From Gammaproteobacteria bacterium (GTDB lineage Bacteria; Pseudomonadota; Gammaproteobacteria; UBA4575): a stretch of DNA of 64,000 nucleotides. Made by a program: the position numbers and the translations under genes. The stretch is from positions 2,108,863 to 2,172,862 of the forward strand of contig OZ252002.1 in assembly GCA_965247265.1 (NCBI GenBank). Reading direction: 5' to 3'. The notes under the pieces are model-generated. The model ran no database searches, was not told where the DNA came from, and was given only the letters and a program-made list of their open reading frames with translations. This document shows positions 12,681 through 64,000 of the stretch, one piece after another (position 1 is the first letter of the stretch; each line of letters begins with the position of its first letter).

Positions 12681-12693
12681 ATGTGTTGGGCTA

Positions 12694-13499: not shown

Positions 13500-13543
13500 C
13501 TAAGTAAATTTCACACTTATTCAATCTAAAGATGACAAACTTA

Positions 13544-15499: not shown

Positions 15500-15620
15500 C
15501 GAGACTCCTCCATCGATTCCGTTTTTTTAATTATTGCTATAAGGTTAAGCTTTGACTAACCTAGTATCTAGGAAGATTGTCCCATATATAGAATAATCTT
15601 AGTTAAACTTTTACTATAAA

Positions 15621-16340: not shown

Positions 16341-16412
16341 ATCATCTCAACTTTAGAACAACACTACGCAAATTAGAATTTGTATACGGCCTTCCCCATC
16401 GTCATATACCTC

Positions 16413-40938: not shown

Positions 40939-41409
40939 CTACGTCACACTTTTTACGTCATTTTTTAAAGATGAACTATTATCAATTGGTATTGCGTACG
41001 CCTGATGTATTATTTTCGGCCAACGAGAGTACCAAGCATTTTCCTGCTCAGGCTCTATTGTTACTACATACACGCGTTGCTCATATTTATAATGCGCAAT
41101 GAGCCCTTGCAAGCACTGCCCCTTTATTAAATCAAACCAATGATTCGTACCATCGTATGATTTTTCCATAAATGATTTAACTGGTACCTTTACTGGTTTT
41201 GGCAACCATCGATCCCATTGCCCTTTATATATGGTTTCTAATCTAGCCCAACCCCCTAATGGGAGCTTACCCTTTTGCTGTTTACGTCTCCCCCACGGCA
41301 CAAGTATTAAATTATTTGATTTTGTAATTACAGGAAGCGTTGCAATTGGATTATGAAAATACACACGTTGGTCATTATTCTCATAAGAATATAATATTGC
41401 ACTACTCAT
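40939..41409 (-). CDS. unknown protein translationally coupled to dinB (third gene of the SOS cassette)
   Basis: ATGA start/stop overlap at 41406-41409 (start at the internal Met of ORF 40939..41439); no recognisable domain. Confidence 0.4.
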   Translation of the reverse strand: MSSAILYSYENNDQRVYFHNPIATLPVITKSNNLILVPWGRRKQQKGKLPLGGWARLETIYKGQWDRWLPKPVKVPVKSFMEKSYDGTNHWFDLIKGQCLQGLIAHYKYEQRVYVVTIEPEQENAWYSRWPKIIHQAYAIPIDNSSSLKNDVKSVT

Positions 41410-46781: not shown

Positions 46782-47412
46782 TAATAATCCTCCAAACCAT
46801 TTGTACGAATCGATTGAATTGCAATTATAGGGCTGCTCCCAATGGTGAGATCTTCGTTAAATTTATGTGAGTAGGAAAAATTAAAAAATAATTGCGAAAA
46901 ATCTATCCCGGCTGTACCTGCACCAAATACACTGGGAAATGTAGCGACAGGTGCAGGACCTGGTCCATCAGGATCAAAAGAAGCGGACCCACCGCTACTG
47001 CTGTAACTCGTATTTAATCCAACATTACCATATAAAGAAAAACCTATCGCATCTTTTTCAGAAATCCATTTATTAATTCCAAAGCTTGCAATTAAGAATA
47101 AATCATTACGGCTGTTTTGAGACGCAGGACCAATAGTAAATGCCCTCCTGCCCCATTTGCAAGACTCTCTGATGACGAATATCCTCGGTCGGGATGAAAC
47201 AATATTGTTCCTACGTCAAATTGATTGCCTATGAACACCATACCAGCAGGGTTTGTTGCAGCAGCCATTGTATCCAACGGTAATGCAGCGCCTGCACCAG
47301 CAAGTGCACGTGTTTTAATTCCTGTGCCGTGCGCAAAATATCCGTTTGTAGTATTTCCAATTACTGGAATGAATATTAAAAGCACTATCACATAGATATT
47401 ATTTAATTTCAT
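46782..47412 (-). pseudogene. FadL/TodX-family outer membrane protein, disrupted (frameshift near 47095, probably internally deleted)
   Basis: N-terminal ORF 47092..47412 has a signal peptide and 'TMAAATNPAGM'; a C-terminal beta-barrel region ending '...TNGLEDY*' is in another frame (46782..47090); the total is about half the length of FadL. Confidence 0.4.
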
Positions 47413-47449: not shown

Positions 47450-47996
47450 TTACCTCTTGGCTGTTACTTCATCAACTGAAGCTAATTCTGCTTCGTTCCC
47501 CCACTTAGTGCGTTCATGATTCACTACTGCAACCACTTCTACGTCACTTAGCTGTGCACCAAACCCTGGCATCGGTGATGGATAGTTAATCCCATCTATT
47601 TCTTTATCCTTTAAACCATTTAGAACAACATCTATATGATCACTTTTATCTTTACTTTATACTGTTTTATTTCCTGCAAGCGCTGGAAAGACTCCCGGTA
47701 ATCCTTGGCCATTAGCCTGATGACACGATGCACAATAGTTTCCATATATTTGTCCACCCAATGCATTATCCTCGTTTGTTGCGACCTTACTGAGTTCAGG
47801 ATTATTTTTTTCTTTTTGTGCTGCAACATTAGACTGATACGTACCATACTCCAAAACAAGATACCCGACAGCCCATGAAAAGATGATAAGACATAAGACC
47901 CATGCCCATGTTGGGATAGGAACAGGATTTTCAATTCGAATTGGTTCGAACTCATCACCAATACGACTGCTATATGCATTCGCTAAATAGAAAGAC
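47450..47996 (-). pseudogene. CcoP-like membrane-anchored monohaem cytochrome c; 5'-truncated and frameshifted
   Basis: 'ENPVPIPTWAWVLCLIIFSWAVGYLVL' (CcoP transmembrane segment 2-like) and 'CASCH' haem site in one frame; 'SPMPGFGAQLSDVEVVAVVNHERTKWGN' C-terminus in another frame (shift near 47650); no start codon before the transmembrane segment. Confidence 0.5.
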
Positions 47997-49373: not shown

Positions 49374-49696
49374 TGAAACTACGTATATAAGAAAGTTTAC
49401 ATAATGGTTATTAAACGAATCTACTTGAACCAACTATCAATGACTTAAAAATCATTATAAAAATAATGATTAGCACCCAAATCAGGAAACTCAACAACTT
49501 CTTTAATCTTCTCGGCTAGGGCAATTACTTTAGGGTCATTCGATATTAGAGTATGGTAGTTGAGCGCTCAACCACACTCAGTTTATATGCTGTTTATATA
49601 TAGTGTCTTTATAACTCTAACAAAACTTGGTGCCCCAAAGTTTCCCCTAAATTTAATTCATCATAAAAAATTCAGCAGTAATAGCGAAACTTTAAT

Positions 49697-49906
49697 TTAA
49701 ACAGTAACAATATTTTCGGCTTGCGGGCCTTTTTGACCTTGAGTGATTGTGAATTCTACTTTTTGACCTTCTGCCAAAGTTTTGAATCCTGCACTAGCAA
49801 TTGAGCTATAGTGCACAAATACATCTGGGCCAGACTGCTGCTCTATAAAACCAAATCCTTTAGATTCGTTAAACCATTTAACTGTTCCATTTACTGTGTT
49901 AGACAT
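49697..49906 (-). CDS. cold-shock protein (CspA family)
   Basis: '[15 protein letters not shown]' RNP1 and 'VFVHY' RNP2. Confidence 0.9.
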
Positions 49907-50157
49907 AATAATATTCCTAAATAATTAAAAAATAAGTGCGCCTCTTGTTAGACATGAATAGCGTGAGAATAGACTAATTTTAAAAACTTCAGGACGGGGT
50001 ATTACGAATAAAACAACGAAATGAAAATATAAACAAAAGACTTTCTTTAAGCTGATTTGCAGACTATAAGGCTGAAATTTTGAAGTCAACCTATTTTACA
50101 AAAATTTAGATGTAAATCATCATTTGACAGGCACATTACTCTACCAAAAGATAACTA

Positions 50158-50188
50158 AATGTCCGCTTTGGGTCGATAGCGGTCATTT
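50158..50188. repeat. hairpin repeat copy 1
   Basis: AATGTCCGCT-TTGGGTCGAT-AGCGGTCATT. Confidence 0.7.
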
Positions 50189-50522
50189 ATTTATTAGCAG
50201 AAATCATTGCTACAGCATGGCTTGTTATCTCTTGATAAACCCCTTCCCCTCCTGGGAGGCTTAAATTTAAATTATGATCCCAATGTGAATTTTCATTTTG
50301 ATTTTCTAATGCTGCAAAGCTGATAGAAAAATTTGACTCTTTACCATCCCACACAAATAGTATTCTGCTATGCGGTTTTCCTAATTCCAACGTGAAACTT
50401 CCAAATACCATTGGGTAATACGAATGTCGGTATACGGCGATCCCAGATTCTCTTAATTCTTCTGCTATGAATAAGAGCGACTTTATATGTTCTATCGCTT
50501 GTTGTGAGATATTCATTACCAA
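50187..50522 (-). CDS. hypothetical protein bracketed by two copies of the hairpin repeat
   Basis: 111-aa ORF; repeat copies lie at 50158-50188 and 50536-50568. Confidence 0.35.
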   Translation of the reverse strand: MVMNISQQAIEHIKSLLFIAEELRESGIAVYRHSYYPMVFGSFTLELGKPHSRILFVWDGKESNFSISFAALENQNENSHWDHNLNLSLPGGEGVYQEITSHAVAMISANK

Positions 50523-50535
50523 TTATTATTACATT

Positions 50536-50568
50536 GTAATGTCCGCTTTGGGTCGTTAGCGATCATTC
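50536..50568. repeat. hairpin repeat copy 2
   Basis: GTAATGTCCGCT-TTGGGTCGTT-AGCGATCATTC. Confidence 0.7.
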
Positions 50569-51066
50569 CCTTTTCTGCTTTCTCCACTCCCATGGCTTTA
50601 CTCTTTCACTCTCTGGTAGCTTCCAAATTCCTACCTTACTCTCTTGCGCCTCTTCTTCAAATTCATATAAACGTTCAGTCGTTGCATACTTAGGGTACAC
50701 ATACGCATATCCACCTTTCACTAATTCACCATTCACCCATACGTCTCCAACATAGACATGCCCTACAATGCGGTCGTAACGATCTATATCAACTTCATAA
50801 ACATCGACGACTTTACCGGCAACGTAATCCACTAAGGCTTCTTTAGATTTTTTCCAGAAAGGTTGGCCTCGCTCAGGCGCATCAATTTCAGCTAAACGTA
50901 TACGAAGTTCTTCATTATCAATCAAGATTCTGATGCTGTCCCCATCCGTAACTTTAACAACTTCACCTCTGTAAGCTATTTTTGTGCTTTGTACGTCACT
51001 ACATGTGACATAGAAGAAAGCAATGGAGCTAATGAAGAATAGGTAAAAAAGAGATTTCTTGATCAC
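50563..51066 (-). CDS. thermonuclease (SNase-like), secreted
   Basis: 'VTDGDSIRI...IRLAEIDAPE' and 'R...Y...VW' SNase catalytic motifs; signal peptide. Confidence 0.7.
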   Translation of the reverse strand: MIKKSLFYLFFISSIAFFYVTCSDVQSTKIAYRGEVVKVTDGDSIRILIDNEELRIRLAEIDAPERGQPFWKKSKEALVDYVAGKVVDVYEVDIDRYDRIVGHVYVGDVWVNGELVKGGYAYVYPKYATTERLYEFEEEAQESKVGIWKLPESERVKPWEWRKQKRE

Positions 51067-51505
51067 AAGTAATCAGCTACCTTCATACACGGCTCCTGCG
51101 ATGTGAAAACCTTTTGCACTCACTGTTTTGGAAGCGTCAAGAAAATATAATTCGGTCTCTCCTTCTTGGACATGCGTTTTATCAGAATCTTGGTATTCCA
51201 TTATTGACGGATAGGCCCAGATTTCGATGGTGCTGCCATTGGGGACTTCATCCCAATAATTCTCGATTGCACCCCATATGGGTTGGCCTTGTTTAGTAAA
51301 AGTTTGTATACGACTTGGTTCCCCAAATTGAGCAGTAATCTCATCACGTGCGGCTCCCACATTGAAATCAGCGTGCATTGGTACAGGCACATCGTCACTA
51401 CATGAGACAATTAATACCATGAACGGGAGGATTAAAAAGTATTTAATGCTTCTTAATCTTTTTATTTTCATCTGTTGAGTCCTAATTCGTGATGAATTTA
51501 TATTT
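50985..51505. repeat. segmental duplication, copy A (thermonuclease 5' end + lipoprotein gene)
   Basis: ~85% identical at the nucleotide level to 58665..59200. Confidence 0.6.
51073..51471 (-). CDS. lipoprotein, copy 1 (paralogue at 58764..59162)
   Basis: lipobox 'VSC'; ~85% identical to the second copy. Confidence 0.5.
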   Translation of the reverse strand: MKIKRLRSIKYFLILPFMVLIVSCSDDVPVPMHADFNVGAARDEITAQFGEPSRIQTFTKQGQPIWGAIENYWDEVPNGSTIEIWAYPSIMEYQDSDKTHVQEGETELYFLDASKTVSAKGFHIAGAVYEGS

Positions 51506-51905
51506 AGAATTTGTGTTCTGTATCACTGGGAACTAAATCATCTGTGGTCCAACTTGAAACTTTACTCCAAGCTTCTTCTAATATTGTTTCCAAGTTGGTT
51601 TTGAGCTCCTGGATGGAGACTGAATTGATGATGGTTTCATGCTGCCATATATGATCGCGTTCTTCGAGTTGATACGCACAAATCCATAACGTCCAGGTAA
51701 GCTCCTTTTCGTTTTGAAGATAGATTTGTATCAATCTATGTAAACTATCCACCCAGCGTAATTCACGGTCCGGCCAGTTCTTGGTATTTTTGCCTAGTGG
51801 AATATCTTTACTACTTGCAAATTTCTCCAGTATTGGATCAAGGCTTTCCAATGGTTTTGCAAGTCTTACCCATTCCTCATCTGTTCCATGAAAACCATTT
51901 GCCAT
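51504..51905 (-). CDS. hypothetical protein
   Basis: ORF only. Confidence 0.35.
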   Translation of the reverse strand: MANGFHGTDEEWVRLAKPLESLDPILEKFASSKDIPLGKNTKNWPDRELRWVDSLHRLIQIYLQNEKELTWTLWICAYQLEERDHIWQHETIINSVSIQELKTNLETILEEAWSKVSSWTTDDLVPSDTEHKF

Positions 51906-52142
51906 AATTAATGCTTTTTAATCTCTTTATTCCCTTGAACAGTCTCCACTTGCTTGATCACTGATAACATCACTTCCATTCCCATCTTAAAAATCTCTTT
52001 GGCTTCTTCTGTCAGAACCCATGGTCGGCTTGCGAGAGGTGGATTATGTCTTACATGTTGCCAATAACCGTATTTGGTGTGAGATTAGATGAAATTCAAA
52101 TAAGACAATTAACTGTGTGGCTTATTCACAATTAAGTAAGTT

Positions 52143-52179
52143 TGAACGTCCGCTTTCGGCCATTAGCAGACATAACGTT
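52143..52179. repeat. hairpin repeat copy 3 (degenerate right arm)
   Basis: GAACGTCCGCT-TTCGGCCATT-AGCAGACATAACGTT. Confidence 0.6.
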
Positions 52180-52270
52180 TAGGATCAGCGGCCGCACGAC
52201 CACGTTTAACTTTAGCTACCTATCCATCAAGGTCCGCTGCATCCGCTTGTTAGGCGGTGTAAATACTGTT

Positions 52271-53083
52271 TCAAAATACAATGGTCACACGCAAGAAGGC
52301 TGCAGTAATAGATGTGGTGTCCTTGTTTGAGCTTTGATTGTGCACGTTGAAGAGGTCATCTAATTCCCTTTCAAGGTCCGAGGCATTGCCATTCTTTTCA
52401 GCAGCCACGAATGCATTCATGGTCGGTCCGTAGTATTCTTTATAAGTCCTCATATACTCGGTAGCTGATACGGGCGCATTAAAAGTCCATGAATCTCGGG
52501 AAAATGATATGTGGTCCGCTGGTACACCAGCCGCTACAAAACGCTCGGTTACGTTACCTTCAACACCCCAGGTCATCGGGCTAATGAATCCTTCTGGCGG
52601 CGGCGGCATATAGGCAGAGACGATTTTTAGGATTTGTGCCACTAGTGTTGGATCATTCGGAATCCAGTTCCCCATGATTATCCTGCCTCCGGGACGGGTT
52701 ACTCGAACCATCTCCTTAGCTACGTCAAACGGATTTGGTGCGAACATGGCTCCAAAGATGGATACAACAAGATCAAATGAATCATCTGCTAGCTCATGTA
52801 AATTACTGGCATCGCCTTGCTGAAACCTGCAATTTACGAGATTTTCCTTCAAGGCTCTTTTGTTCGCGGCTTCAAGCAGATTATCCGCGATATCCACACC
52901 CACTACTTCAGCTCCAAGCCTTGCCGCGGGTAAAGCAGTGGTTCCATCACCACAACCAAGATCCAGCACTTTCAGGTCTTTGTGAACGCCGATGTTTTCG
53001 ACAAGTGCTTCTCCACTCTCTCGCATAGTATCGGCAATGCGTGTGAAATCGCCTTTTTCCCATAGAGCTTTATTTTGATTCAC
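52271..53083 (-). CDS. class I SAM-dependent methyltransferase
   Basis: 'VLDLGCGDGTTAL' motif I. Confidence 0.75.
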   Translation of the reverse strand: MNQNKALWEKGDFTRIADTMRESGEALVENIGVHKDLKVLDLGCGDGTTALPAARLGAEVVGVDIADNLLEAANKRALKENLVNCRFQQGDASNLHELADDSFDLVVSIFGAMFAPNPFDVAKEMVRVTRPGGRIIMGNWIPNDPTLVAQILKIVSAYMPPPPEGFISPMTWGVEGNVTERFVAAGVPADHISFSRDSWTFNAPVSATEYMRTYKEYYGPTMNAFVAAEKNGNASDLERELDDLFNVHNQSSNKDTTSITAAFLRVTIVF

Positions 53084-53275
53084 GATATCTCCTGACGAGA
53101 TTGGTTAAGATATTGAGTATATCCGCCTAACATATTAATACATGGCGATTTTGCTTAGATATCACGCTATACGTGTAGAATCTGCAAGATCCACCATTAA
53201 CATGCATTAACACCAATTAAATAGTGATACCTGAGCATTTTTGCATTGATATCGCATATATATGGTTAGTATTGC

Positions 53276-53306
53276 AATGCCTGCTTTCGGCCAAAAGCGG
53301 TCATTC
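53276..53306. repeat. hairpin repeat copy 4
   Basis: AATGCCTGCT-TTCGGCCAAA-AGCGGTCATTC. Confidence 0.65.
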
Positions 53307-53341
53307 GCCATGCTATTTAATTAGCCATACGCCTAGAATAA

Positions 53342-53647
53342 TTATTCCAAGACCAATGATTCGAAGTGCCGTAATCTTTCCATCCGCAAATAAAGATGAA
53401 AAACAAACGAAACTATTAAACCTACAGAAATAACGAAAGTGATTGCATATGGAGAACTTTTTAATGCGTAATATGTAGCCACGCCAAAACCAGCACTACC
53501 TATAATTACTAGTCCAAAATTAATTAGATTGCTAACCGGAGCAATTAATGCGTATTTAAAAGATGCCACTTCACCTGTTCGGAGACCATAATAAGAGAAT
53601 AGAGTGTAGGACACTATTGTCGCGACTATCGCTAAAATCCAATTCAT
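53342..53647 (-). CDS. small membrane protein
   Basis: three transmembrane segments. Confidence 0.35.
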   Translation of the reverse strand: MNWILAIVATIVSYTLFSYYGLRTGEVASFKYALIAPVSNLINFGLVIIGSAGFGVATYYALKSSPYAITFVISVGLIVSFVFHLYLRMERLRHFESLVLE

Positions 53648-53725
53648 TGTTTGCTCAGCTCTTTAGTATTTTTAAATTTGTGAACATGCTTTTTAGATTA
53701 TATAGTATCTGTATTCACCTCATCC

Positions 53726-53767
53726 AATGTCCACTATGTGTCGCTTACCGGCCAAAAGCGGACACTC
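53726..53767. repeat. hairpin repeat copy 5 (9-nt insertion in the left arm)
   Basis: AATGTCC[actatgtgt]CGCTTACCGGCCAAAAGCGGACACTC. Confidence 0.55.
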
Positions 53768-54038
53768 ACGATCTTGGAGTTACTTCCCTACGAATATAAT
53801 ACGAAGTATTTTAAGGAGGGCTTTGTTGCCCCTTATTAACATTAGAGTTTGAATTTTCTCTACAAGGTGTTTGAAATGGATAATAAAAAGCTGAAGGTAA
53901 GATAGCAAATCCAACAAGCGTTGATATAAGAATATGTTTTATTGTGCGCTTAGTGGTGACTTATTGGTGACTCATTTTTTTATTGAAATGAGCTATATGT
54001 TCTAGCAACTTATATATTGCTGTTTTTAGAGGATAAAT

Positions 54039-54088
54039 TGGCGCGCCCGGAGGGACTCGAACCCCCGACCACCTGGTTCGAAGCCTAG
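54039..54088 (-). other. tRNA-Arg(UCG) 3' fragment (anticodon loop to CCA), att-like remnant, copy 1
   Basis: minus-strand reads ...CUUCGAA (anticodon UCG)-CCAGG-UGGUC-GGGGGTTCGAGTCCCTC-CGGGCGC-G-CCA; the 5' half (D-arm, 5' acceptor) is absent. Confidence 0.6.
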
Positions 54089-54139
54089 TATACATTTCAA
54101 TGATTACAATGAGTTAAATTTAAAAACTATTTAGATTAT

Positions 54140-54170
54140 GAATGTCCGCTTTCGGCCAATATCTTTATTT
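54140..54170. repeat. hairpin repeat copy 6 (left arm + loop only)
   Basis: GAATGTCCGCT-TTCGGCCAAT, then diverges; 50 nt from the tRNA fragment. Confidence 0.55.
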
Positions 54171-54692
54171 TTGTATTGATTCTAGATACAAAAGCAGTTC
54201 GAAGATTCTTCCTCTTACAAGCGTTTCAGAATAGCGAGTTCTTATTTCAAGCCAATGTTCCGTATTATAGCGGTCACCCCATACTGGCATTACACGCGGG
54301 CCGTGAGATTTTATTTCTTCACGTCCATCAATGATTCGATATAGTTTGCTGAATGGAAATTCAGCATAATTCTTTTTTTGAATTAAGGTTAAATTTGCAG
54401 GTTTCTCCATTAATGCAAATGCGTAAAAGCCATTACCCTTTCCATCCAAACCATGACAAAGCGAACAGGTTCTCTCATACTCTTTTTGACCCATAAGAAC
54501 CGCATCTTTTGTTTGTTTTATTAACTCTTCTTCGTCAATATTCTCTTTGGCGCGCACATCGGTGATTACATTAATTTCTTTTTGAGCATTAATAAGCTCT
54601 TCAACATCTTGCGCAAAAGTTTGATGAACTATTACGCTTAAAATACATGTAAATATAATTAGAATTCGAGAGCGTAGGCGAATATATTTCAT
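54165..54692 (-). CDS. class I c-type cytochrome, secreted
   Basis: 'CSLCHG' haem-binding site and 'MPVWGD' Met ligand; signal peptide from the internal Met (MKYIRLRS) of ORF 54165..54746. Confidence 0.7.
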   Translation of the reverse strand: MKYIRLRSRILIIFTCILSVIVHQTFAQDVEELINAQKEINVITDVRAKENIDEEELIKQTKDAVLMGQKEYERTCSLCHGLDGKGNGFYAFALMEKPANLTLIQKKNYAEFPFSKLYRIIDGREEIKSHGPRVMPVWGDRYNTEHWLEIRTRYSETLVRGRIFELLLYLESIQK

Positions 54693-54827
54693 TGTCATTA
54701 AAAAATAAAATTTAATGCAAAATATTTTATACGATTTTAATATCACTGATATGATTTAGATCAAATATTTCAAGGATTTATGGCAGGTTGGAGTACGTAT
54801 TAGAATACATATAAGTACTGATCAAGA

Positions 54828-55358
54828 TCAATGCGGTCCATTTTTTTTATGCATATAATGCGCAATTCCACTTAGTGCCATCATCCAACGGGCCAAAACA
54901 AATGTAGGCCCTTTCGTATGGGCAAGTTCATGTCCAAACATTATGCCAAGCCCAAGATAGATGCCGGCAGATACGGTTGCTCCATACAACTGCCAACCTG
55001 TAACACCATGATGTATGGTTACACCTAATATTTCTGATGTACCAAATGGAACACCAGTAACGTATTCGTACACCCGCCATACAAGTGCAAGTTGCAACAT
55101 AACAAACACTGGGTACTGTACCCACATCATTATCTTTAAAAGCCAATCTATGTCATATGCATCACCATCATCATCTCGTCCTGCAGGTTCACAATGAATA
55201 GATTTAATTGCGCTAGTTGCATAATCAACGATGATTGAGGCAATGAAAAGACCAACACCCGTCCAAACCCATGGGCCGCCAATAACCACGCCCAGTAAAG
55301 CTAAAAATATTAAGCTTGGTGTCAAAAAATATCGAATGTTTACTAAAACTTTATGCAT
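54828..55358 (-). CDS. membrane protein with 'HELAHTK' His-box (AlkB/desaturase-like N-terminal fragment?)
   Basis: 176 aa, four transmembrane segments, only one His-box; full-length family members are ~400 aa. Confidence 0.35.
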   Translation of the reverse strand: MHKVLVNIRYFLTPSLIFLALLGVVIGGPWVWTGVGLFIASIIVDYATSAIKSIHCEPAGRDDDGDAYDIDWLLKIMMWVQYPVFVMLQLALVWRVYEYVTGVPFGTSEILGVTIHHGVTGWQLYGATVSAGIYLGLGIMFGHELAHTKGPTFVLARWMMALSGIAHYMHKKNGPH

Positions 55359-55399
55359 GTTCGCATCCTCACTTACAAACTAAAATTTTATATTTTTAA

Positions 55400-56194
55400 T
55401 TAATAGTCACTGATTTGGACGGATTTTAATTGCCCTTGAAATGTTTCATGTGCATTTGGAAGAAAATCATAAGCAACTAAATCTTGCCCACATTGGCTTT
55501 TTCTGGTTTTAATTCGATCAAACCAGATCTTTACATTTTTTCTTTCATCAATAAGTGAACTACAATTAGCCATCTCACAAAGATGCAAATAAACCGTCCA
55601 ATGTAGATCTGCCCAAGTATATTTGTCACATACAATGTACTTGTTTCTCTCTAGCTGTTTATCTAATGCATCAAAAAATACTTTTAAATCTTCACAGCTT
55701 GCATCAATCACCTGGTTACCTGGCGAATAAGAGGGGTCGCTATACTTTTTAGAAATTGATTCATGAACAATAAAATTTACAAGAGGAGCAACATTCGCGA
55801 CAGCAATATCAACCCAGTAATCTTGCAGCGCAGCAAGTGAAGCATTACGCGGTGTTATCGAATAACCCAATCCCCTTGCATTTATAAATGCGGTAATTGC
55901 ATCACCACCATATGTAATGAAATCAGCTTCTTTTAAGCAAGGTGTGATTGAAAAGAGTGAAATCTCTTCAATGTACTCGTCCATTTGATCTACCGAGTCA
56001 GCAATCATGCTGTAACAATTCATTTCCATACCTTGTTCAGCTGCGGTGATAATACATTTAAGTGTATCGGGGTCTGTTGGGCTACCAATTAGTTCAAGCA
56101 CATACTGTGTTTTTTTCATGTCGCCAGATAATCCGTATCTGGAACTGTCATTTGATCCCGCTTTTTCAGCCATTAAATTAAATATATCTGTCAT
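55400..56194 (-). CDS. GST-like protein (thioredoxin-fold N-domain + GST-C-like), paralogue 1
   Basis: 'TPCLKEADFITYGGDAITAFI' cis-Pro loop region; tandem with a paralogue. Confidence 0.45.
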   Translation of the reverse strand: MTDIFNLMAEKAGSNDSSRYGLSGDMKKTQYVLELIGSPTDPDTLKCIITAAEQGMEMNCYSMIADSVDQMDEYIEEISLFSITPCLKEADFITYGGDAITAFINARGLGYSITPRNASLAALQDYWVDIAVANVAPLVNFIVHESISKKYSDPSYSPGNQVIDASCEDLKVFFDALDKQLERNKYIVCDKYTWADLHWTVYLHLCEMANCSSLIDERKNVKIWFDRIKTRKSQCGQDLVAYDFLPNAHETFQGQLKSVQISDY

Positions 56195-56229
56195 GATTAT
56201 TTACCTGTATTAAAAATGTTTACAAAATT

Positions 56230-56856
56230 TTATGCGGCTACTTTTTCAACCTTAGATTCATAACCAGGAATATCTGCCTTTACTCTAGTTAGCCAATTAT
56301 TTATATTTTCATAACTGCTAAAAACTTCGCTCTGGCCAGACTCCTCAAGCATTTTAAATACTCCTGACCAATGAATATCTGCTAAAGAAAATTCTCCAAC
56401 AATATAGTCTTTATCTTTAATATTTTTATCAAACACTTCTAAAACTTTTTTAATTTCTTTTTTTCTATTAGAAATATTATTTAGCAGAGGTTCAAATTTT
56501 TTGGTCAGTACTTGTATCCAATACTGCTGCATTGCTAAAACACGCGCCTTTCTAGGGTGGATTGTGGGCGTTCGTCCTTTTATATTTAAATAGGTCAACA
56601 CACCTCTCATACCAGTAACAATAAAGTCACCATCTTTTAAACAAGGAAACTGAGTCAAATTATCCATATGTAAAGACTCGGATAACTTTTCATCATCTAA
56701 TGACGAAACATTCCATTCAATGTCAACAGGAAGGTCCCTATAAGATGCCAAAAAGATACATTTATATGATTCAGAATCACCTGGCTGACATACTAAGTTA
56801 GAAGTTTCGTTTGCCTTTTTTTTCGATTTAAATAAGCCCATTGCATTAATCTCCAA
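56230..56856 (-). CDS. GST-like protein, paralogue 2
   Basis: 'QFPCLKDGDFIVTGMRGVLTYL' cis-Pro loop region. Confidence 0.45.
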   Translation of the reverse strand: MEINAMGLFKSKKKANETSNLVCQPGDSESYKCIFLASYRDLPVDIEWNVSSLDDEKLSESLHMDNLTQFPCLKDGDFIVTGMRGVLTYLNIKGRTPTIHPRKARVLAMQQYWIQVLTKKFEPLLNNISNRKKEIKKVLEVFDKNIKDKDYIVGEFSLADIHWSGVFKMLEESGQSEVFSSYENINNWLTRVKADIPGYESKVEKVAA

Positions 56857-56989
56857 TAATTATAGCGACCTGATTTAATTGTCTTTATTCAATTTCCTTG
56901 ATTTAAACATTGAATAATTTCAATTTAAAAATCTTGTTTACCGATTTCAAGAAAGGAAATAGCATACTTACGTAATTCATAAGAAATAC

Positions 56990-57061
56990 TGATCTGAGTC
57001 AGGTTAAAATTGCTAAAATATCAGGCAGGTATGTAAAATTGATTTATACTGATCTAGATCA
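56990..57061. promoter_or_regulatory. two FNR-type boxes in the divergent GST-like/fnr promoter region
   Basis: TGATCTGAGTCA (56990-57001) and the perfect palindrome TGATCTAGATCA (57050-57061), both TGAT-N4-ATCA; FNR consensus is TTGAT-N4-ATCAA. Confidence 0.4.
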
Positions 57062-57168
57062 GAAATATGGGATTTACTATATGCGCATCACTATAAACAT
57101 ACTTAAAGACATATGTATTTAAATAAAAATGAAATTTAGTCTCTCGTTATAATTATCATAATTTCTAG

Positions 57169-57918
57169 GTGGCAATGACTAGCACAGAGCATAAAATTAA
57201 CTTCAAGTCATTAAAAGCTTCTTGTCATAACTGCTCTTTGGTAGAACTATGCCTGCCAAGAGGATTAGCTACCAATGACTTAAGTGCATTAGATGATTTA
57301 ATTCAGCAGTGCAGACTTGTTAAAAAAGGTGATCCTATTTTTAGTCAGGGGGAAAAATCCGGATGCATTTTTGCAGTGCGATCAAGCTCAGTAAAGTCTT
57401 TTACGACAGCAAGAAATGGTGAAGAACAGATTTTGGGATTCCATTTACCTGGTGAATTACTTGGTCTAGATGGTCTCGATAATCAAATCCATAGCTGTTC
57501 TGGTATTGCATTAGATACATCTACAATTTGCGAGTTACCCATAGATGAATTGAATGTTTTGTGTGTAAAAATGCCTGGCCTGCAGCAGCAATTACTGAGT
57601 CTAATTAGTGATGAAATTACTAAAGATCACTCGATGCTCCTTTTGTTAGCACGGCGTAATTCCGAGCAAAAGCTGGCCACATTTTTTATCAACCTCTCAA
57701 ATCGCTTTAAAGTCCGTGGCTATTCAGCTAATGAATTTGGTTTGACGATGAGCCGATGCGATATAGGTAACTATCTAGGACTTGCAGATGAGACAGTGAG
57801 TAGATTAATAACTAAATTTAGAGAAAATAAAGTTATTGATGCTGATAGAAAGAAAATAAAGATACTCAACCACGAATTATTATGCAAAGTGGCTGAAGGT
57901 GATTGCAATTTAAATTAA
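57169..57918 (+). CDS. fnr: FNR-type (Crp/Fnr family) [4Fe-4S] oxygen-sensing regulator
   Basis: N-terminal 'CHNCSLVELC' (C-x2-C-x5-C) plus central 'ICELP' Cys; recognition helix 'ETVSRL'. Confidence 0.75.
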   Translation: MAMTSTEHKINFKSLKASCHNCSLVELCLPRGLATNDLSALDDLIQQCRLVKKGDPIFSQGEKSGCIFAVRSSSVKSFTTARNGEEQILGFHLPGELLGLDGLDNQIHSCSGIALDTSTICELPIDELNVLCVKMPGLQQQLLSLISDEITKDHSMLLLLARRNSEQKLATFFINLSNRFKVRGYSANEFGLTMSRCDIGNYLGLADETVSRLITKFRENKVIDADRKKIKILNHELLCKVAEGDCNLN

Positions 57919-58072
57919 TAATTAAATAAGCTAATTTCACCACCGCTAATCAACATGCCTAATGGAATAAAGTTTGTTCTTCCAAAATATTAATCTCCTT
58001 TTTAAAGATTATGATGTGGATTCATATTTTAACTGCTTTAAACTAAACTTTATGGGCTTCTTCATTAAACTA

Positions 58073-58108
58073 TTTGAACGTCCGCTTTCAGCCAAAAGCG
58101 GTCATTCA
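58073..58108. repeat. hairpin repeat copy 7
   Basis: TTGAACGTCCGCT-TTCAGCCAAA-AGCGGTCATTCAA. Confidence 0.7.
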
Positions 58109-58205
58109 ATTTCTAACGATTTTCCTTGATTATTTTCTAAACAACAAACGATTGTTTACAAAAGCATGTTTTATATATTTTTGTTATGGAGTGCATTAGG
58201 TTATC

Positions 58206-58544
58206 TCAGTCTGTATCTATGATGTGACGTTCTTCAAATTCAATTATTTCTCCACATTTTAAATCTTGGATATATTTAGGATTATCTTCTAACTGTCCTA
58301 ATAATTTATTATATTGTACTAATAGAATCTCAACCCACAATTGCTCTGTGCTCGGGATTTCTGGATCATCACTTTTAAAATTAAATATAAGCTTTACTTT
58401 ATGCCCTTTCTCTAGGGGTTCAATCGCTTCTTTTGAAGGTTTAGATAGTGTATATGGAAACTCTTCTGACAGCTTTTGTGCATCTTCAAGCTTCCAACTT
58501 TTATCTATCACTGTTTCTCTTTTGGGTCGAAAGCGGACATTCAA
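58206..58544 (-). CDS. hypothetical protein (true start uncertain; the annotated start lies inside a repeat copy)
   Basis: the first residues 'MNVRFRP' are encoded by the hairpin repeat. Confidence 0.3.
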   Translation of the reverse strand: MNVRFRPKRETVIDKSWKLEDAQKLSEEFPYTLSKPSKEAIEPLEKGHKVKLIFNFKSDDPEIPSTEQLWVEILLVQYNKLLGQLEDNPKYIQDLKCGEIIEFEERHIIDTD

Positions 58545-58545
58545 C
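58516..58545. repeat. hairpin repeat copy 8 (loop + right arm only)
   Basis: TTTTGGGTCGAA-AGCGGACATTCAA. Confidence 0.55.
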
Positions 58546-58664
58546 CCGTCCTCAAATTATCTGAAAATATTGTTAAATGATTGGATGATGCGCATGTCAA
58601 AATTATATTTCTTTAACCTTTCTTCCAAAACTTATTTCTTTAATCTCTCTTTTGCTATTAAGTA

Positions 58665-59200
58665 GACTTTCTTTGCGCTTTGTACATCATTGCAAGTGAC
58701 ATAAAAAAATGCGATTGCACTGATGAAGAATAAGTAGAAGAGAGATTTTTTGATCACAAGAAATCAGCTTCCTTCATACACAGCTCCTGCGATGTGAAAT
58801 CCTTTTCCACTCACTGTCTTAGAATCATCTAAAAAATATAATTCGGTTTCACCTTCTTGGACATGAGTGTTATCAGAATTTTGGTATTCTATTGTAGATG
58901 GGTACGCCCAGATTTCGATCGTGCTGCCATCGGGTATTTGTTCCCAATAACTCTCTATTGCCCCCCATATCGGTTGGCCTTGTTTAATAAAGGTTTGCGT
59001 ACGACTGGGTTCACCAAATAGTGAGGTAATCTCATCACGTGCGGCTCCCACATTGAAATCAGCGTGCATCGGTACTGGCATTTCGTCTTCGCATGAGACA
59101 AGCAATACAATGAGCGGAAGAATTAAAAAGTAATTAATGCTTCTTAATCTTTTTATTTTCATCTGTTGAGTGCTGATTCGTGATGAATTAATATTTTTCA
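58665..59200. repeat. segmental duplication, copy B (thermonuclease N-terminal remnant + lipoprotein gene)
   Basis: matches 50985..51505; only ~30 codons of the thermonuclease are retained before divergence. Confidence 0.6.
58764..59162 (-). CDS. lipoprotein, copy 2 (paralogue of 51073..51471)
   Basis: start taken at the internal 'MKIKRLRS' of ORF 58764..59201; lipobox 'VSC'. Confidence 0.5.
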   Translation of the reverse strand: MKIKRLRSINYFLILPLIVLLVSCEDEMPVPMHADFNVGAARDEITSLFGEPSRTQTFIKQGQPIWGAIESYWEQIPDGSTIEIWAYPSTIEYQNSDNTHVQEGETELYFLDDSKTVSGKGFHIAGAVYEGS

Positions 59201-59351
59201 TAACTTGCTTTGCCTAAACACTACGCTGCAAATAAAATTAAAATGAGTGGTGGGAGTTTTTTCATTGCATCCCCTCTACTTATTATTCTTATAGGGGAAT
59301 CATACTCCTAGGCCCAACAAAATTCTGAGCCATTGATTTATCTATATTTCT

Positions 59352-59384
59352 AATGTTTGCTTTCGGCCAATAGCGGATGTTAGG
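59352..59384. repeat. hairpin repeat copy 9 (degenerate)
   Basis: AATGTTTGCT-TTCGGCCAAT-AGCGGATGTT. Confidence 0.55.
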
Positions 59385-59420
59385 ATTTTTTGATGATTCA
59401 TTGATTTAGACCAGTATAAA

Positions 59421-59846
59421 TTGACAATCTACTCTATAATATTATTTACGATTACGAAAATAAACCAAATAAATATTATAAATCCAACCTTATTTGAAAA
59501 AATCGGTGGTAAAGAAACTGTAGATAAAGCAGCAAAATTTCTATATGTAAACGTATTGCGCGATGATCGCCTCAAGCGCTTTTTCGAAGGCACTGATATG
59601 CAAAAGCAAGAGCGCATGATGAGCGCATTTTTGGTTAACATTTTGGGTGGCCCGTCACTTTACGTTGGAAAACACATGCAGCGTGCGCATGCGGATTCGG
59701 TTAAAGATGGACTGAGTGACAAGCATGTTGACGCGATGATGGAATGTGTGGGTGCGGTGCTTCGTGAATTGAAAATAGAAGCCGATCTAATTAGTGAAGT
59801 TATAAAGACAATTGAAAAGCATCGGGACAGTGTACTTGGTAGATGA
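59421..59846 (+). CDS. truncated haemoglobin paralogue 2 (start uncertain)
   Basis: 'FEKIGGKETV...ILGGPSLYVGKHMQRAH'; the position of copy 1's ATG reads ATA here; the only in-frame ATG is 30 codons upstream. Confidence 0.6.
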   Translation: MTIYSIILFTITKINQINIINPTLFEKIGGKETVDKAAKFLYVNVLRDDRLKRFFEGTDMQKQERMMSAFLVNILGGPSLYVGKHMQRAHADSVKDGLSDKHVDAMMECVGAVLRELKIEADLISEVIKTIEKHRDSVLGR

Positions 59847-59944
59847 GCTAATATTATCGTTCATTCAAAAAGTAATTCATGTTAGTTCTATTATTAAAAA
59901 CGCTGAAGCGAAGTCGCGGAAATAAGAATTGTTTTGTATGTTAA

Positions 59945-59982
59945 AGGCTACAATTTGAATGTCCGCTTTGGGTCGGAAGCGG
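59945..59982. repeat. hairpin repeat copy 10
   Basis: TTGAATGTCCGCT-TTGGGTCGGA-AGCGGTCATTCACAA. Confidence 0.7.
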
Positions 59983-60213
59983 TCATTCACAATATTTCTG
60001 CCTAATATAAATTCCCTTTTAGCTTTTCTTTTAGCTCTTAATATAAGTGTAAAATTGTATTATTAGCACTATTCTTAAGAACGATCAGAGTAAACATGGC
60101 TTATTTTATATAAAATGTAGTTTTAAAATTTCTATCGTACAGTAAAGTATAAGCTACTCTGTATTAAGAATTATAAATAACCATCTCTTTTTTTAACAAA
60201 AGACAAAATTGAC

Positions 60214-60984
60214 ATGAAAAAAATACTTATTGGTTTAGTAGTCTTAATAATTATTATTGCAGGCGCTGCATATTATCTTTTTAGCAATTTAGACAATATT
60301 GTGAAGGCCGCAATTGAAAAATACGGATCAGAAGTGACTCAAACAAGCGTGAACGTGAGCAGTGTACACATTGGATTAACCGATGGGCTAGGGACAATTA
60401 AAAATTTAGTTATTGGTAATCCTAAAGGATTTGATAGCGACTATTTGTTTCAAATGGACAACATAGGCGTACAACTAAATTTAGATAAAATTTCTAAAGA
60501 TTTAATCATAATCAATCAAATCATGCTGGATGGCCCTTCTATCATTTATGAATTGAACAACACTACTAGCAACGTCGATGTGGTTAAAAAGAATGTTGAT
60601 GCTTATGCAGGTAGTGGTGCTGAGAACAAAGAGCGCGATCAAAGTGCTGGACCTAAATTGATTATTGAAAATTTCATTATCAAGAACGGTGATGTAAAAG
60701 CAGTATCGAATATGGTAAAGGATAAAACCTTATCCACTAAACTCCCAACTATCCATTTGCGTGATATTGGGAAAGAGACAGGTGGTGCTACCTCTGCAGA
60801 AGTGTCAAAGATCATCATTACGGAGTTGACGAAAGAAACAAAAGCTGCAGCTGGCGACCTTGATTTACGCTCCTTGATGAATGAGGAGATGTTGAAGAAT
60901 CTCGATACAGAGACATTAAAAGATGTGGATAAGCTTAAAGGCCTTGAAAAGGAAGTGGGTGACAAACTAAAGAAGATGTTTTAA
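60214..60984 (+). CDS. membrane-anchored protein of unknown function (AsmA/DUF748-like?)
   Basis: N-terminal transmembrane segment, rest hydrophilic. Confidence 0.35.
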   Translation: MKKILIGLVVLIIIIAGAAYYLFSNLDNIVKAAIEKYGSEVTQTSVNVSSVHIGLTDGLGTIKNLVIGNPKGFDSDYLFQMDNIGVQLNLDKISKDLIIINQIMLDGPSIIYELNNTTSNVDVVKKNVDAYAGSGAENKERDQSAGPKLIIENFIIKNGDVKAVSNMVKDKTLSTKLPTIHLRDIGKETGGATSAEVSKIIITELTKETKAAAGDLDLRSLMNEEMLKNLDTETLKDVDKLKGLEKEVGDKLKKMF

Positions 60985-61022
60985 CTCAAATCTTTTTATT
61001 CAACTCAAATTTAATTTAGAAT

Positions 61023-61054
61023 CAATGTCCGCTTTGGGTCGTTAGCGGACATTG
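61023..61054. repeat. hairpin repeat copy 11 (perfect 11-bp stems)
   Basis: CAATGTCCGCT-TTGGGTCGTT-AGCGGACATTG. Confidence 0.75.
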
Positions 61055-61059
61055 CGTAA

Positions 61060-61338
61060 CTAATTTTGTATTAACCTTTCCCTAAACTCCCTCGGCACCT
61101 CTTCATCCAACCAAACATTATTCGGTTCCTTCCATTCCTTAACCCTTGGCTTTCTTATCTGATAACATCGATACGTAATCTTCCCTTCTTCTTCAAGCTT
61201 TGCGTAAATGGCTCTTAATGATAAGCATGCATCTGCTACATGCACCACATCTACTGGCTCCCATTCCACATATGGCTTCTTCATTATCTGATCAGCCTTG
61301 ATAATCTCTTCTTTTATATTGGCGTGGATTTCAATCAA
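61060..61338 (-). CDS. hypothetical protein
   Basis: ORF only. Confidence 0.35.
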   Translation of the reverse strand: MIEIHANIKEEIIKADQIMKKPYVEWEPVDVVHVADACLSLRAIYAKLEEEGKITYRCYQIRKPRVKEWKEPNNVWLDEEVPREFRERLIQN

Positions 61339-61655
61339 AATTGATCCTTCTTGATGTTAAAATGGCCTATATCGACTAACCCCTACCCTTACCCTTACTT
61401 ACCCATATATAAGCGATTTTCCCCTCTGAAAGCCGCATAGAATAGGGCCGAAATTCAAGTTTTTAAGGGTCTTAGGTATCTATAAATAGCTAGAAACTTG
61501 GTCTTATTATTCAGGTCTAAAGTCATACCTATTGTTTGGTTAGCTCCATTACCAATGGATGGGTTATAGAAGTTATTCAGTAGGTGCTCGCCATCGTAGG
61601 CTTGTGTGTATCCCTAAGCACAAACCATCTGTTAGTGGTGGCGTTCTTTCACTAT

Positions 61656-62201
61656 TTAATTTCTAGTTGCTCTAGCAATCTCTTCAAAGTTTATATCTTT
61701 ATAGCTGAACACTTGGTTATTCATTAGACTTTTATCATAATTATCTACCCAATCCTTATGAAGCCCTAAATCCATATGTGTGGGTGGGGCAATAGTAAAC
61801 GTCACAGAGTATAAATCTGATGTTTTTCCAGGAAGAGAAATGTTTCTTGCATAATGAAAGTTATCGACTAAATTAATATGCGGTAGCAAATCTACGAAAG
61901 CGCTTAACCCTGTTGTTTGATTAACAACTTTAGCAGTAATGTAAAGGTAAGGTACAAAACCTCCTTCTGGTGTTCCCTCAGGAATGTCTTTATCAGCCCA
62001 ATTAACACGCGCTTCGATATGAACATGGGTTTCACTCTCATTAATATGGCGCATGCTTGGCATTATCTGATCCTTGATGGCTCCTTCAAAAATGAACACG
62101 ATCCCTGGTGATACAGTTTCTTCACCAATAACCAATTCAATTGCATGAACAATTGAAAAATTAGCTAAAACGAAAAAAATTAATATTAACTTCTTAATCA
62201 T
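61656..62201 (-). CDS. P19/FtrA-family periplasmic Fe/Cu-binding protein
   Basis: 'HVHIEARVNWAD...PEGGFVPYLYITAKVVNQTTG...LPHINLVDNFHYARN' aligns with Campylobacter P19 'IHLEADIHA...PEGFWMPYLTIAYEL...MPMVADDGPHYGAN'. Confidence 0.6.
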   Translation of the reverse strand: MIKKLILIFFVLANFSIVHAIELVIGEETVSPGIVFIFEGAIKDQIMPSMRHINESETHVHIEARVNWADKDIPEGTPEGGFVPYLYITAKVVNQTTGLSAFVDLLPHINLVDNFHYARNISLPGKTSDLYSVTFTIAPPTHMDLGLHKDWVDNYDKSLMNNQVFSYKDINFEEIARATRN

Positions 62202-62705
62202 TAGATTTTCCTTATTTATTTTTGAGTTTAATACACAGCCTGGCTAGATTTAATTGTATTGTTAATGTTTAGCTTTGTTTTAAAAATAGCCCTTGTAACC
62301 ATATCGTTGCCCCTTAGTAAATTTTCTTTGAATTTTATAAATTCCGATTAGTGAAAATTGATTAGTCTTGGATTAATCATAGGTTCGTGCAGGATCTGTT
62401 TTTTTGTGCTTGTTATGTGACATGTTTCAATAATATCTATTTGCTAATAATAACGATTCGCATTAGTATTCGCAATAAGTTTACATCATTTTGGAAGAAT
62501 TAATTAAGATTTACTAAATTTTATGAAGTTTTTTCTCTATTAAACAGTAACTTATTTATTGTCCTTGCAGCTATCACTGCTTTACAAATGTAACTTCTTG
62601 GAGAATCCCATGTAAAAGCAATAGAATAATTGCAAAATTCTTTTCGCGAAATTTTCGCGGCGAAAAGTTTAGATGTTCTAAATTTATCTAAGCCCTTGTT
62701 TTTTA

Positions 62706-62750
62706 TGGCGCGCCCGGAGAGATTCGAACTCCCGACCACCTGGTTCGAAG
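62706..62750 (-). other. tRNA-Arg(UCG) 3' fragment, copy 2 (direct repeat of 54039..54088)
   Basis: ...CUUCGAA-CCAGG-UGGUC-GGGAGTTCGAATCTCTC-CGGGCGC-G-CCA; differs from copy 1 by compensating T-stem substitutions. Confidence 0.55.
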
Positions 62751-62918
62751 GGAAATAGTTTGAATTCCTTCAAATAGCGAGTCTAACTATAAACACATTA
62801 AAATCATAACGTTAAATACACGACGATCTTCGCGGACTATTGCGTCTCCAGTCATAAACAGTTTTAAACAACAGCTATTTTACTAAGTGTGGTCACAAAT
62901 CCGGTCACAACATAATCA

Positions 62919-63446
62919 TTAAGAAGAAACAGGCATAAACTGAAGGACACTTGGGAGACGCACTTCTACACGGCTTCTCAATAATGCATCATCTTTGCAT
63001 GCACTGATAAATGCATTAACGCCATGCACAACATCATTAATGAAAGACTTCATGCCAATTATTACGAGATTACTATTTTCGTTTGGATCATATGCATGTT
63101 TGCCGCCGTCGTGATATACGTATTTAATCGTATCAGAGTCTTCTGTGTGCAACTCGGCAGTCGAACCATATGTATGCAGAAAAGCACAACGCGCAGCATA
63201 AACATCCTTGCCTCTATATTGATATGGTTGATCTGCGTGACCTTGAAGATAAGTGTCAACCCATTGCTTAAAATCAGACCGAGTAACTCTATCTTTGTCT
63301 ACAGGCCTGCCAAGAGATGCTAGAAGATCTATACATATAAATGACATGGCAACTGCTGCGGTATTAATATCAGCTTCATCACATCGTTTTATCTCACTAA
63401 CTAAACCAACTATAGCTTTCCAGTTTTCTGTAGATTCAGTTCCCAT
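62919..63446 (-). CDS. hypothetical protein
   Basis: ORF only. Confidence 0.35.
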   Translation of the reverse strand: MGTESTENWKAIVGLVSEIKRCDEADINTAAVAMSFICIDLLASLGRPVDKDRVTRSDFKQWVDTYLQGHADQPYQYRGKDVYAARCAFLHTYGSTAELHTEDSDTIKYVYHDGGKHAYDPNENSNLVIIGMKSFINDVVHGVNAFISACKDDALLRSRVEVRLPSVLQFMPVSS

Positions 63447-63556
63447 AATTATTTATGCTCCTCAATCACAACGTGGTCGAGCTATGAGGTAATCACATAG
63501 CTAATACTCAGAGAATGGTAGGTGGTCATAGAGAGCTAAAGACGGTCTATTGGAGC

Positions 63557-63958
63557 CTACGACTTCCCTTTTAGATATAATTTGAGTTGTTCTATGCTTA
63601 GAGCAGGCTGCGTTTTATGTATCATGGCATGGCAGTTAGGACATACAGGAACTAAATCATTAACTGGATCCAGTATATATTCTTTACGTATGTCGGCCAA
63701 TGGAATCTTATGGTGTACATGTATGTAATTCTCTCCCAATGGACCATAAAACTTTTTAAATTCAAAGCCACATACTTTACATTTGTATCCATGATGTTTA
63801 ATGCATTCAGCTCTTGCTTTGTCATCTCGCTCGTATGTATTTACAGATATTTGCTTAGATGCACCTTCTATAAACTGCTTTGGAGTTACTATTTCCTCTG
63901 GAAGACTATTACCCAGAAAATTATCAGATGCATACCAATCATTGCCAATTCGCTTCAA
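63557..63958 (-). CDS. HNH endonuclease
   Basis: 'CKVCG...HVHHKIP...CPNCHAMIH' HNH/zinc-finger motif. Confidence 0.6.
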   Translation of the reverse strand: MKRIGNDWYASDNFLGNSLPEEIVTPKQFIEGASKQISVNTYERDDKARAECIKHHGYKCKVCGFEFKKFYGPLGENYIHVHHKIPLADIRKEYILDPVNDLVPVCPNCHAMIHKTQPALSIEQLKLYLKGKS

Positions 63959-64000
63959 GAATTTATTTATAATCTTTGGTTCAAAACTTTCGATTTTTGA

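Follow-up and report, generated by a model that had tools for sequence, protein, structure and literature searches.

A widespread REP-like hairpin repeat in co-oriented arrays at the boundaries of exchangeable gene modules

Hairpin repeats in a 64-kb window

The window analyzed here is a stretch of 64,000 nt (positions 2,108,863 to 2,172,862 of contig OZ252002.1) from an uncultured gammaproteobacterium, whose best named citrate-synthase relatives belong to Thioalkalivibrio (~70% identity). Its first 40 kb carry core genes, namely gltA, fadBA, metX, prc and a sulfate adenylyltransferase gene. The segment from 50157 to 61054 holds a short hairpin repeat, the subject of this study, amid small genes that code for SNase-like, methyltransferase, two globin, cytochrome c, DUF2314 and DUF748 proteins.

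By a pattern search, a single-arm search and a repeat finder, 11 copies of the repeat were found in these ~11 kb. The consensus pattern with up to 3 mismatches detected 6 full copies, where 100 shuffles gave an expectation of 0, and the degenerate and half copies were added through the single-arm search and the repeat finder. The remaining 53 kb (1-50156 and 61055-64000) contained no copy, and their 3 single-arm matches compare with 3.2 expected by chance. The asymmetric centre was oriented alike on the plus strand in all 11 copies, with the sequence GGGTCG in five and CGGCCA or CAGCCA in six. These results confirmed a preliminary description of this DNA, made from the sequence alone, that had reported a clustered hairpin repeat with two centre types. 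DNA folding of nine copies yielded five stable hairpins, with free energies (dG) of -7.8 to -11.7 kcal/mol and z scores of at most -4.5, and four decayed ones. The individual copies, with dG in kcal/mol, are as follows.

50157..50188, plus strand: hairpin copy, centre GGGTCG, T.T mismatch in the stem, dG -7.8, z -5.0; overlaps the stop codon of the minus-strand open reading frame (ORF) 50187-50522 and bounds the ORF111 module described below on its 3′ side
50537..50568, plus strand: hairpin copy, centre GGGTCG; is the 5′ boundary of the ORF111 module and provides the TGA stop of the minus-strand SNase-like gene 50563-51066
52143..52174, plus strand: hairpin copy, centre CGGCCA, 3′ arm decayed, without a stable fold; adjoins a possible attC-like site of the methyltransferase gene
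53275..53306, plus strand: hairpin copy, centre CGGCCA
53726..53768, plus strand: hairpin copy, centre CGGCCA, with an insertion or a duplicated 5′ arm
54140..54160, plus strand: half copy, 5′ arm and CGGCCA centre followed by unrelated DNA; 57 nt from a tRNA 3′-end fragment
58076..58107, plus strand: hairpin copy, centre CAGCCA, dG -8.2, z -4.6; between the convergent fnr-like and DUF2314 genes
58516..58545, plus strand: half copy, GGGTCG centre and 3′ arm; gives rise to an artefactual ORF start
59351..59382, plus strand: decayed hairpin copy, centre CGGCCA; between divergent genes
59957..59988, plus strand: hairpin copy, exact consensus match, centre GGGTCG, dG -10.5, z -5.6; downstream of a globin gene
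61023..61054, plus strand: hairpin copy, perfect 12-bp stem, centre GGGTCG, dG -11.7, z -6.0; between convergent genes

The copies had been described as all intergenic; most of them are indeed extragenic, but two overlap minus-strand stop codons (50187 and 50563). As a short, palindromic and mostly extragenic repeat, the element was rightly likened to repetitive extragenic palindromes (REPs).

The consensus built from 601 oriented copies is ATGTCCGCTTT-NNGYCR-AAAGCGGACAT, that is, a 28-mer of an 11-nt arm, a 6-nt centre and a second 11-nt arm, and its centres fall into a few discrete classes (GGGTCA/G, CGGCCA, GCGCCA, GTGCCA and GGGCCA). The element spans 28-32 nt, as the enrichment for pairing stops 2-3 nt outside the core. 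Miniature inverted-repeat transposable elements (MITEs) have an internal region of 50-500 bp between terminal inverted repeats, as well as a target-site duplication, so the term MITE-like does not suit an element of ~32 nt. One-sided changes were numerous in the arms, among them recurrent T.T and C.A mismatches, and no compensatory covariation was detected in the 601 copies, in which double changes were no commoner than independence predicts. It is therefore the sequence that is conserved and not just the pairing, which speaks for a partner that recognizes this sequence and against a role in RNA structure alone. The element had no match in Rfam. The proposed function as a terminator was not supported either, as the element has no T-run and the window contained 8 terminator-like sites vs. 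7.5 expected; only two of these touched a copy, both via an alternative small stem.

Distribution, arrays and module boundaries

The hairpin family is not lineage-specific, as had been supposed, but a very widespread REP-like family, since the same sequence including the centre was found across proteobacterial classes. Among the matches listed in a scan of one genome per species, the 28-mer was present in isolates of the Gammaproteobacteria (Lysobacter, Frateuria, Rhodanobacter, Noviluteimonas, Pseudoxanthomonas and Marinimicrobium), the Betaproteobacteria (Telluria and Massilia) and the Alphaproteobacteria (Brevundimonas and Kiloniella), as well as in many metagenome-assembled genomes (MAGs) of the Xanthobacteraceae. 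These matches are not due to chance, because bases outside the pattern (AT before and GGACAT after it) were conserved in most of them. A stricter 26-nt pattern recovered at least 120 metagenome contigs from soil and sediment, with GC contents of 35-67%. The family also occurs on Pantoea megaplasmids and in defence hotspots of E. coli prophages, but outside Pantoea it is seldom found on plasmids, and viral contigs rarely carry it (45 stretches).

The element explains a large class of spurious annotated ORFs, with peptides from its frames such as VRFGSKADI, VRFRPKADI and MSALGQKRT, which are familiar from junk ORFs. Its sequence has thus been encountered many times but apparently never characterized. 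Literature searches by sequence string or peptide motif returned nothing relevant, and no description of the element was found in the REP surveys searched: GTCCGC and GCGGAC were absent from the GTAG/CGTC survey of Di Nocera et al. 2013 (PMC3733652) with its supplements, from RepRanger and from the Coxiella MITE paper, and TGTCCG was absent from the supplements of the GTAG/CGTC survey. Nor do the published descriptions of defence hotspots that were compared mention hairpins at the boundaries.

The hairpins cluster locally amid small accessory genes and are strongly co-oriented. Neighbouring copies 200-3000 bp apart pointed the same way in 208 cases and opposite ways in 15 (93% co-oriented), and those less than 200 bp apart did so at 68:10, although the intervening genes pointed both ways. 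Gene direction and 8-kb GC skew explained the orientation only weakly (56:37, 31:19 and 33:19, of which 31:19 is the agreement of GC skew with hairpin orientation), so that the co-orientation of neighbours far exceeds what either would produce. Contig L233 (comparison loci carry L numbers), for example, has 6 copies in 5 kb at a spacing of ~900 bp, parting one- or two-gene units on either strand, and L162 has 14 copies in 12.9 kb.

Another array lies on the Pantoea vagans plasmid pPV989-508 (L296/L297), with 28 co-oriented copies in ~48 kb that span the record start (468 kb to 8 kb), and 0 copies in the next 42 kb. These copies are often paired, with CTCGCTCA and GTGCCA centres, and the genes among them include two fosA-like genes and genes for GST, cupin, LysE, GNAT and NamA. 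The copies on this plasmid make up one local array. In addition, tandem composites, among them the Pantoea pairs, mix different centre classes in one orientation per array. One kind, which is alphaproteobacterial, is a triple hairpin with the centres GGGTCA, ACCCCC and GTGCCA and conserved spacers of 17 nt (GTGCAGTGCA...); in another, four hairpins form a unit of ~190 bp. Clustering of the proteins encoded near hairpins yielded only ABC substrate-binding proteins, histidine kinases and LysR regulators, all of them families typical of the lineages. Loci with composite arrays are listed below.

Xanthobacteraceae: composite arrays in L031, L058, L065, L066 and others
Further loci: composite arrays in L124, L146, L164, L166, L182, L199, L222 and L235

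Comparison of the contigs showed that the hairpins coincide with the boundaries of exchangeable modules. Over all fetched loci, 30% of the ends of homology blocks lay within 10 nt of a hairpin, compared with 5.8% for random positions. In the pairs L184/L211 and L127/L136, homology ended at the outer edge of a hairpin. L223 likewise shares the SNase gene of the window (70% amino-acid identity) together with the hairpin 3′ of it, and the DNA past the hairpin is unrelated. The earlier suggestion of a recombination hot spot has thereby gained comparative support.

The ORF that had been noted as bracketed by two copies proved to be a discrete unit that recurs elsewhere.

50157..50568, minus strand: ORF111 module, hairpin-ORF-hairpin; ORF of 109-111 aa without a Pfam match

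The protein database contains only three relatives of the ORF (50187-50522). The module shares 77-83% column identity from hairpin to hairpin with its counterparts in L294 and L295, and both flanks are unrelated. Its three contexts are likewise unrelated: it lies beside cspA and the SNase gene in the window, near toxin-antitoxin genes and a P4-type integrase island in L294, and 50 nt downstream of a tRNA-Val gene in L295. L294 comes from a relative of the window organism; there, a P4-type integrase/AlpA/DUF3987 island (12336-16365) is located between the ORF111 module and an imuB-like gene that is syntenic with window positions 41406-42626.

Five rac/Qin-like prophages of E. coli (L287 and L289-L292) share a common backbone up to a hairpin after the DUF977 gene, a member of the family with the sequence GTCCGCTTTGTGCCAAAAGCGGAC, and then carry unrelated defence cargo (DUF4209, AAA ATPases, QueH with Kiwa, and SMEK). 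When L287 and L289 were compared, the 150 nt left of the hairpin were 100% identical and the 150 nt right of it were at background. Two hairpins bracket the cargo in L292 and in a P2 hotspot, where they enclose a restriction endonuclease gene next to retron Ec67 in the P2-like prophage L288.

Possible routes of module exchange and rival explanations

Based on these comparisons, we favour, with a probability of roughly 55%, the reading that the REP-like repeats punctuate co-oriented arrays of accessory genes and form joints at which one- or two-gene modules swap between genomes. Modules would enter and leave by recombination at the hairpins, possibly via short homology or in a structure-induced manner between dispersed copies, or alternatively through a sequence-specific enzyme acting in trans. 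The hairpin sequence would spread between taxa by travelling with the modules. Short-homology recombination, a site-specific enzyme in trans and a Y1-type single-strand mechanism are all possible. If the hairpins are swap joints, they offer a sequence tag for exchangeable modules, hypervariable arrays and phage-defence hotspots in genomes and metagenomes, and point to a recombination route without an adjacent integrase. Moreover, the conservation of arms and centre across classes implies a specific protein partner, which could be found by phylogenetic profiling.

Several observations weigh against swapping at the hairpins or against a dedicated enzyme. No integrase, transposase or other recombinase was found in the part of the window from 40 to 64 kb, and the annotation of the Pantoea array lists no recombinase; 1.4 Mb of loci yielded a single tyrosine recombinase with a clear match to IntI1. 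The preliminary description had suggested a REP-associated tyrosine transposase (RAYT) as partner. Searches with tblastn and phmmer covered the window and ~1.9 Mb of loci that carry the hairpin and detected nothing homologous to E. coli RayT, although one query sequence can miss distant RAYT groups. A real RayT sequence served as the query because Pfam misses E. coli RayT at E ≤ 0.001. The relative L177 holds a decayed orthologous copy at the position of window copy 50157; some copies are therefore old and inherited in place, and not all are recent joints. The breaks in homology at hairpins could also be a passive outcome of selection that keeps a gene with its 3′ end. An 83% identical duplication in the window (50971-51520 vs. 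58662-59190), which takes in a lipoprotein-like gene and ~30 codons at the start of the SNase-like gene, was rejected as a hairpin-bounded cassette, since its ends do not coincide with hairpins. The crossover position was inconsistent as well: L287/L289 and the downstream hairpin of ORF111 suggested the junction of the centre and the 3′ arm, but in L184/L211 the arm beside the conserved module is the divergent one. Half-site breakpoints did not point to a clean cleavage position, as hairpins of a class with a 7-nt centre confounded their analysis. Finally, the arm statistics are biased, as 5′ arm and centre were both set in the pattern used on the metagenomes, and some of the odd phyla among the MAG matches may be binning errors.

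A bolder form of the swap-joint reading, a pan-proteobacterial cassette system without a cis integrase, in which the conserved 28-nt (11-6-11) hairpin, recognized by a trans enzyme, would delimit and mobilize one- or two-gene modules, build co-oriented arrays on chromosomes and megaplasmids and mark the boundary of the defence cargo in E. coli prophages, is put forward tentatively and seems rather doubtful to us.

Compared with known systems, the element is akin in its workings to a REP and in part to an attC or pdif site, yet it fails the defining features of each. REPs and bacterial interspersed mosaic elements (BIMEs), including the GTAG and CGTC palindromic superfamilies, are 20-40 nt long, mostly extragenic and often at gene 3′ ends (PMC3733652). 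The hairpin resembles them as a short, imperfect and mostly extragenic palindrome that can overlap C-termini and can cluster. Members of the CGTC superfamily have an unpaired CGTC/TGTC head, an 8-9 bp stem starting with AT, a 4-5 nt loop and a CCA tail (PMC3733652). Like this family, they have no adjacent transposase, but the hairpin has TGTC paired with GACA, a stem of 11 bp, a centre of 6 nt and no CCA tail. A further difference from REPs is that the copies are arranged head to tail with 93% co-orientation rather than as head-to-head dimers, and are conserved across classes instead of being species-specific.

The attC sites of integrons are 57-141 nt long, have RYYYAAC/GTTRRRY boxes and form arrays with IntI at one end. 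The hairpin arrays are similar to those of integrons and of clusters of attC sites lacking integron-integrases (CALINs), in that small and often promoterless genes in local arrays are each parted by a co-oriented, hairpin-forming site. The gene content (GST, cupin, ABM, methyltransferase, FosA and GNAT) is similar too, and the units recur, bounded at the site. However, the present site is only 28-32 nt long, lacks the RYYYAAC/GTTRRRY boxes, separates genes of both orientations without an IntI nearby and is itself conserved in sequence. With dif and pdif sites, the substrates of XerC and XerD, it shares the 11-6-11 nt layout and the bracketing of short gene modules in different contexts, as on Acinetobacter plasmids. 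By eye, no sequence similarity to the E. coli dif consensus is apparent, and pdif modules have inverted site pairs in contrast to the direct pairs here, where the copy number is also far higher in some hosts. IS200/IS605 elements and palindrome-associated transposable elements (PATEs) are comparable in that a movable unit has direct hairpins at both ends, the strands are asymmetric and the stems imperfect; unlike in IS200/IS605, no Y1 transposase was found in ~1.9 Mb with the E. coli RayT query, both ends are the same element and no target tetranucleotide was recognized.

The 11-6-11 layout also invites an explanation by dedicated site-specific recombination, analogous to that at integron attC sites or Acinetobacter pdif modules, in which the arms bind a recombinase, the centre is the overlap and the centre classes are compatibility classes. 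Conserved arms without covariation, few discrete centre classes, co-oriented arrays of small genes and modules bracketed by direct copies all fit such core sites. So do the tandem composites, which always mix centre classes, and the window half copies 54140 and 58516, which break at the centre borders. We nevertheless regard this explanation as unlikely: no recombinase adjoins any array, flanking copies often differ in centre class (50537/52143 in the window, and L292), the crossover position varies between examples, and the hundreds of copies per Xanthobacteraceae genome would be dangerous for an active system. A classical selfish REP or REPIN, copied by a single-copy RAYT (Y1 HUH) on single-stranded DNA and only incidentally linked to module boundaries, would account for the size, palindromy and extragenic position, and the T.T mismatch in many copies recalls substrates of Y1 transposases. 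The strong regional co-orientation fits insertion coupled to a replication strand, and the hairpin-gene-hairpin unit with direct hairpins resembles the IS200/IS605 architecture. Yet the unpaired GTAG or CGTC head of REPs is missing (no unpaired GTAG head appears in the 601-copy consensus, in which the outer bases pair), and inverted doublets give way to head-to-tail copies. GC skew matches hairpin orientation at only 31:19, and the E. coli RayT query, which as a single sequence can miss distant RAYT groups, found no homologue in ~1.9 Mb. Moreover, the hairpin sequence is the same across classes, whereas REPs are species-specific and co-vary with their RAYT (PMC3733652). Taken together, we consider the REP or REPIN origin improbable.

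At the level of RNA, the hairpin could be a 3′ stem-loop that stabilizes or ends transcripts and travels with each gene. Consistent with this, many copies lie at or over stop codons (50187 and 50563 in the window), the orientation bias between co-directional genes is 18:3, on one side genes turn their stop towards the hairpin about twice as often as their start, and the L177 copy directly follows an intrinsic terminator. Against an RNA element of this kind, the centre is conserved from class to class, more than structure alone would require, and the copies are co-oriented whatever the gene direction. The missing T-run, the terminator-like sites without excess, the tolerance of conserved mismatches without compensatory covariation, the position of copy 59351 between divergent genes and the absence of an Rfam match also disagree with it, so that it appears quite improbable.

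IS110-family transposases were found near hairpins in only three loci, given below, and the hairpin family may be a target of IS1111-type elements. In L017 and L093, hairpin arms lie ~175 nt apart, downstream of the transposase gene.

L017, 1146-2213: IS110-family transposase beside hairpins (Pfam DEDD_Tnp_IS110, Transposase_20)
L059, 2492-3526: IS110-family transposase beside hairpins (same Pfam families)
L093, 2-874: IS110-family transposase beside hairpins (same Pfam families)

Surroundings of the hairpin segment

A block of two GST genes and fnr is common to the window and the relatives L119 and L120, whose Fnr proteins are 84% and 79% identical to that of the window, respectively. At the position of the hairpin-rich segment, both relatives carry ccoNOQP and an intact fatty-acid desaturase gene. 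The window retains only fragments of FadL, CcoP and the desaturase.

47092-47412: FadL remnant
47632-47979: CcoP-like cytochrome remnant
54828-55358: desaturase remnant (N-terminal 176 aa of the desaturase)

As L119 and L120 keep the intact genes, the window genome has lost the cbb3 oxidase operon here. The hairpin-rich segment is rearranged relative to L119 and L120: the ccoNOQP/desaturase region of the relatives is replaced in the window, and the hairpins therefore lie in replaced accessory DNA.

Two direct repeats of 45 nt, 93% identical (54039-54083 and 62706-62750), correspond to the 3′ part of a minus-strand tRNA. Rfam gave a weak tmRNA-like match for them, and no intact tRNA was found in the window. 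These repeats flank part of the hairpin region and look like the att-type scars that integrated islands leave.

The methyltransferase gene (52271-53083) lies in a region of higher GC content, with GTTAGGC directly 5′ of it (53126-53132). On its 3′ side, an element resembling attC, GCCTAACAAGCGG...CCGCTGATCCTAAACGTTATG (52172-52256, minus strand), ends 2 nt from the hairpin at 52143; its fold was no better than that of shuffles (z -0.25). An integron-type cassette formed by the gene and this attC-like element is thus only possible.

The 5′ leader of the cspA gene (49663-50068, minus strand) gave a sub-threshold match to the Rfam cspA thermoregulator, with a score of 37.7 bits vs. a gathering score of 78 and an E value of 6.7e-7.

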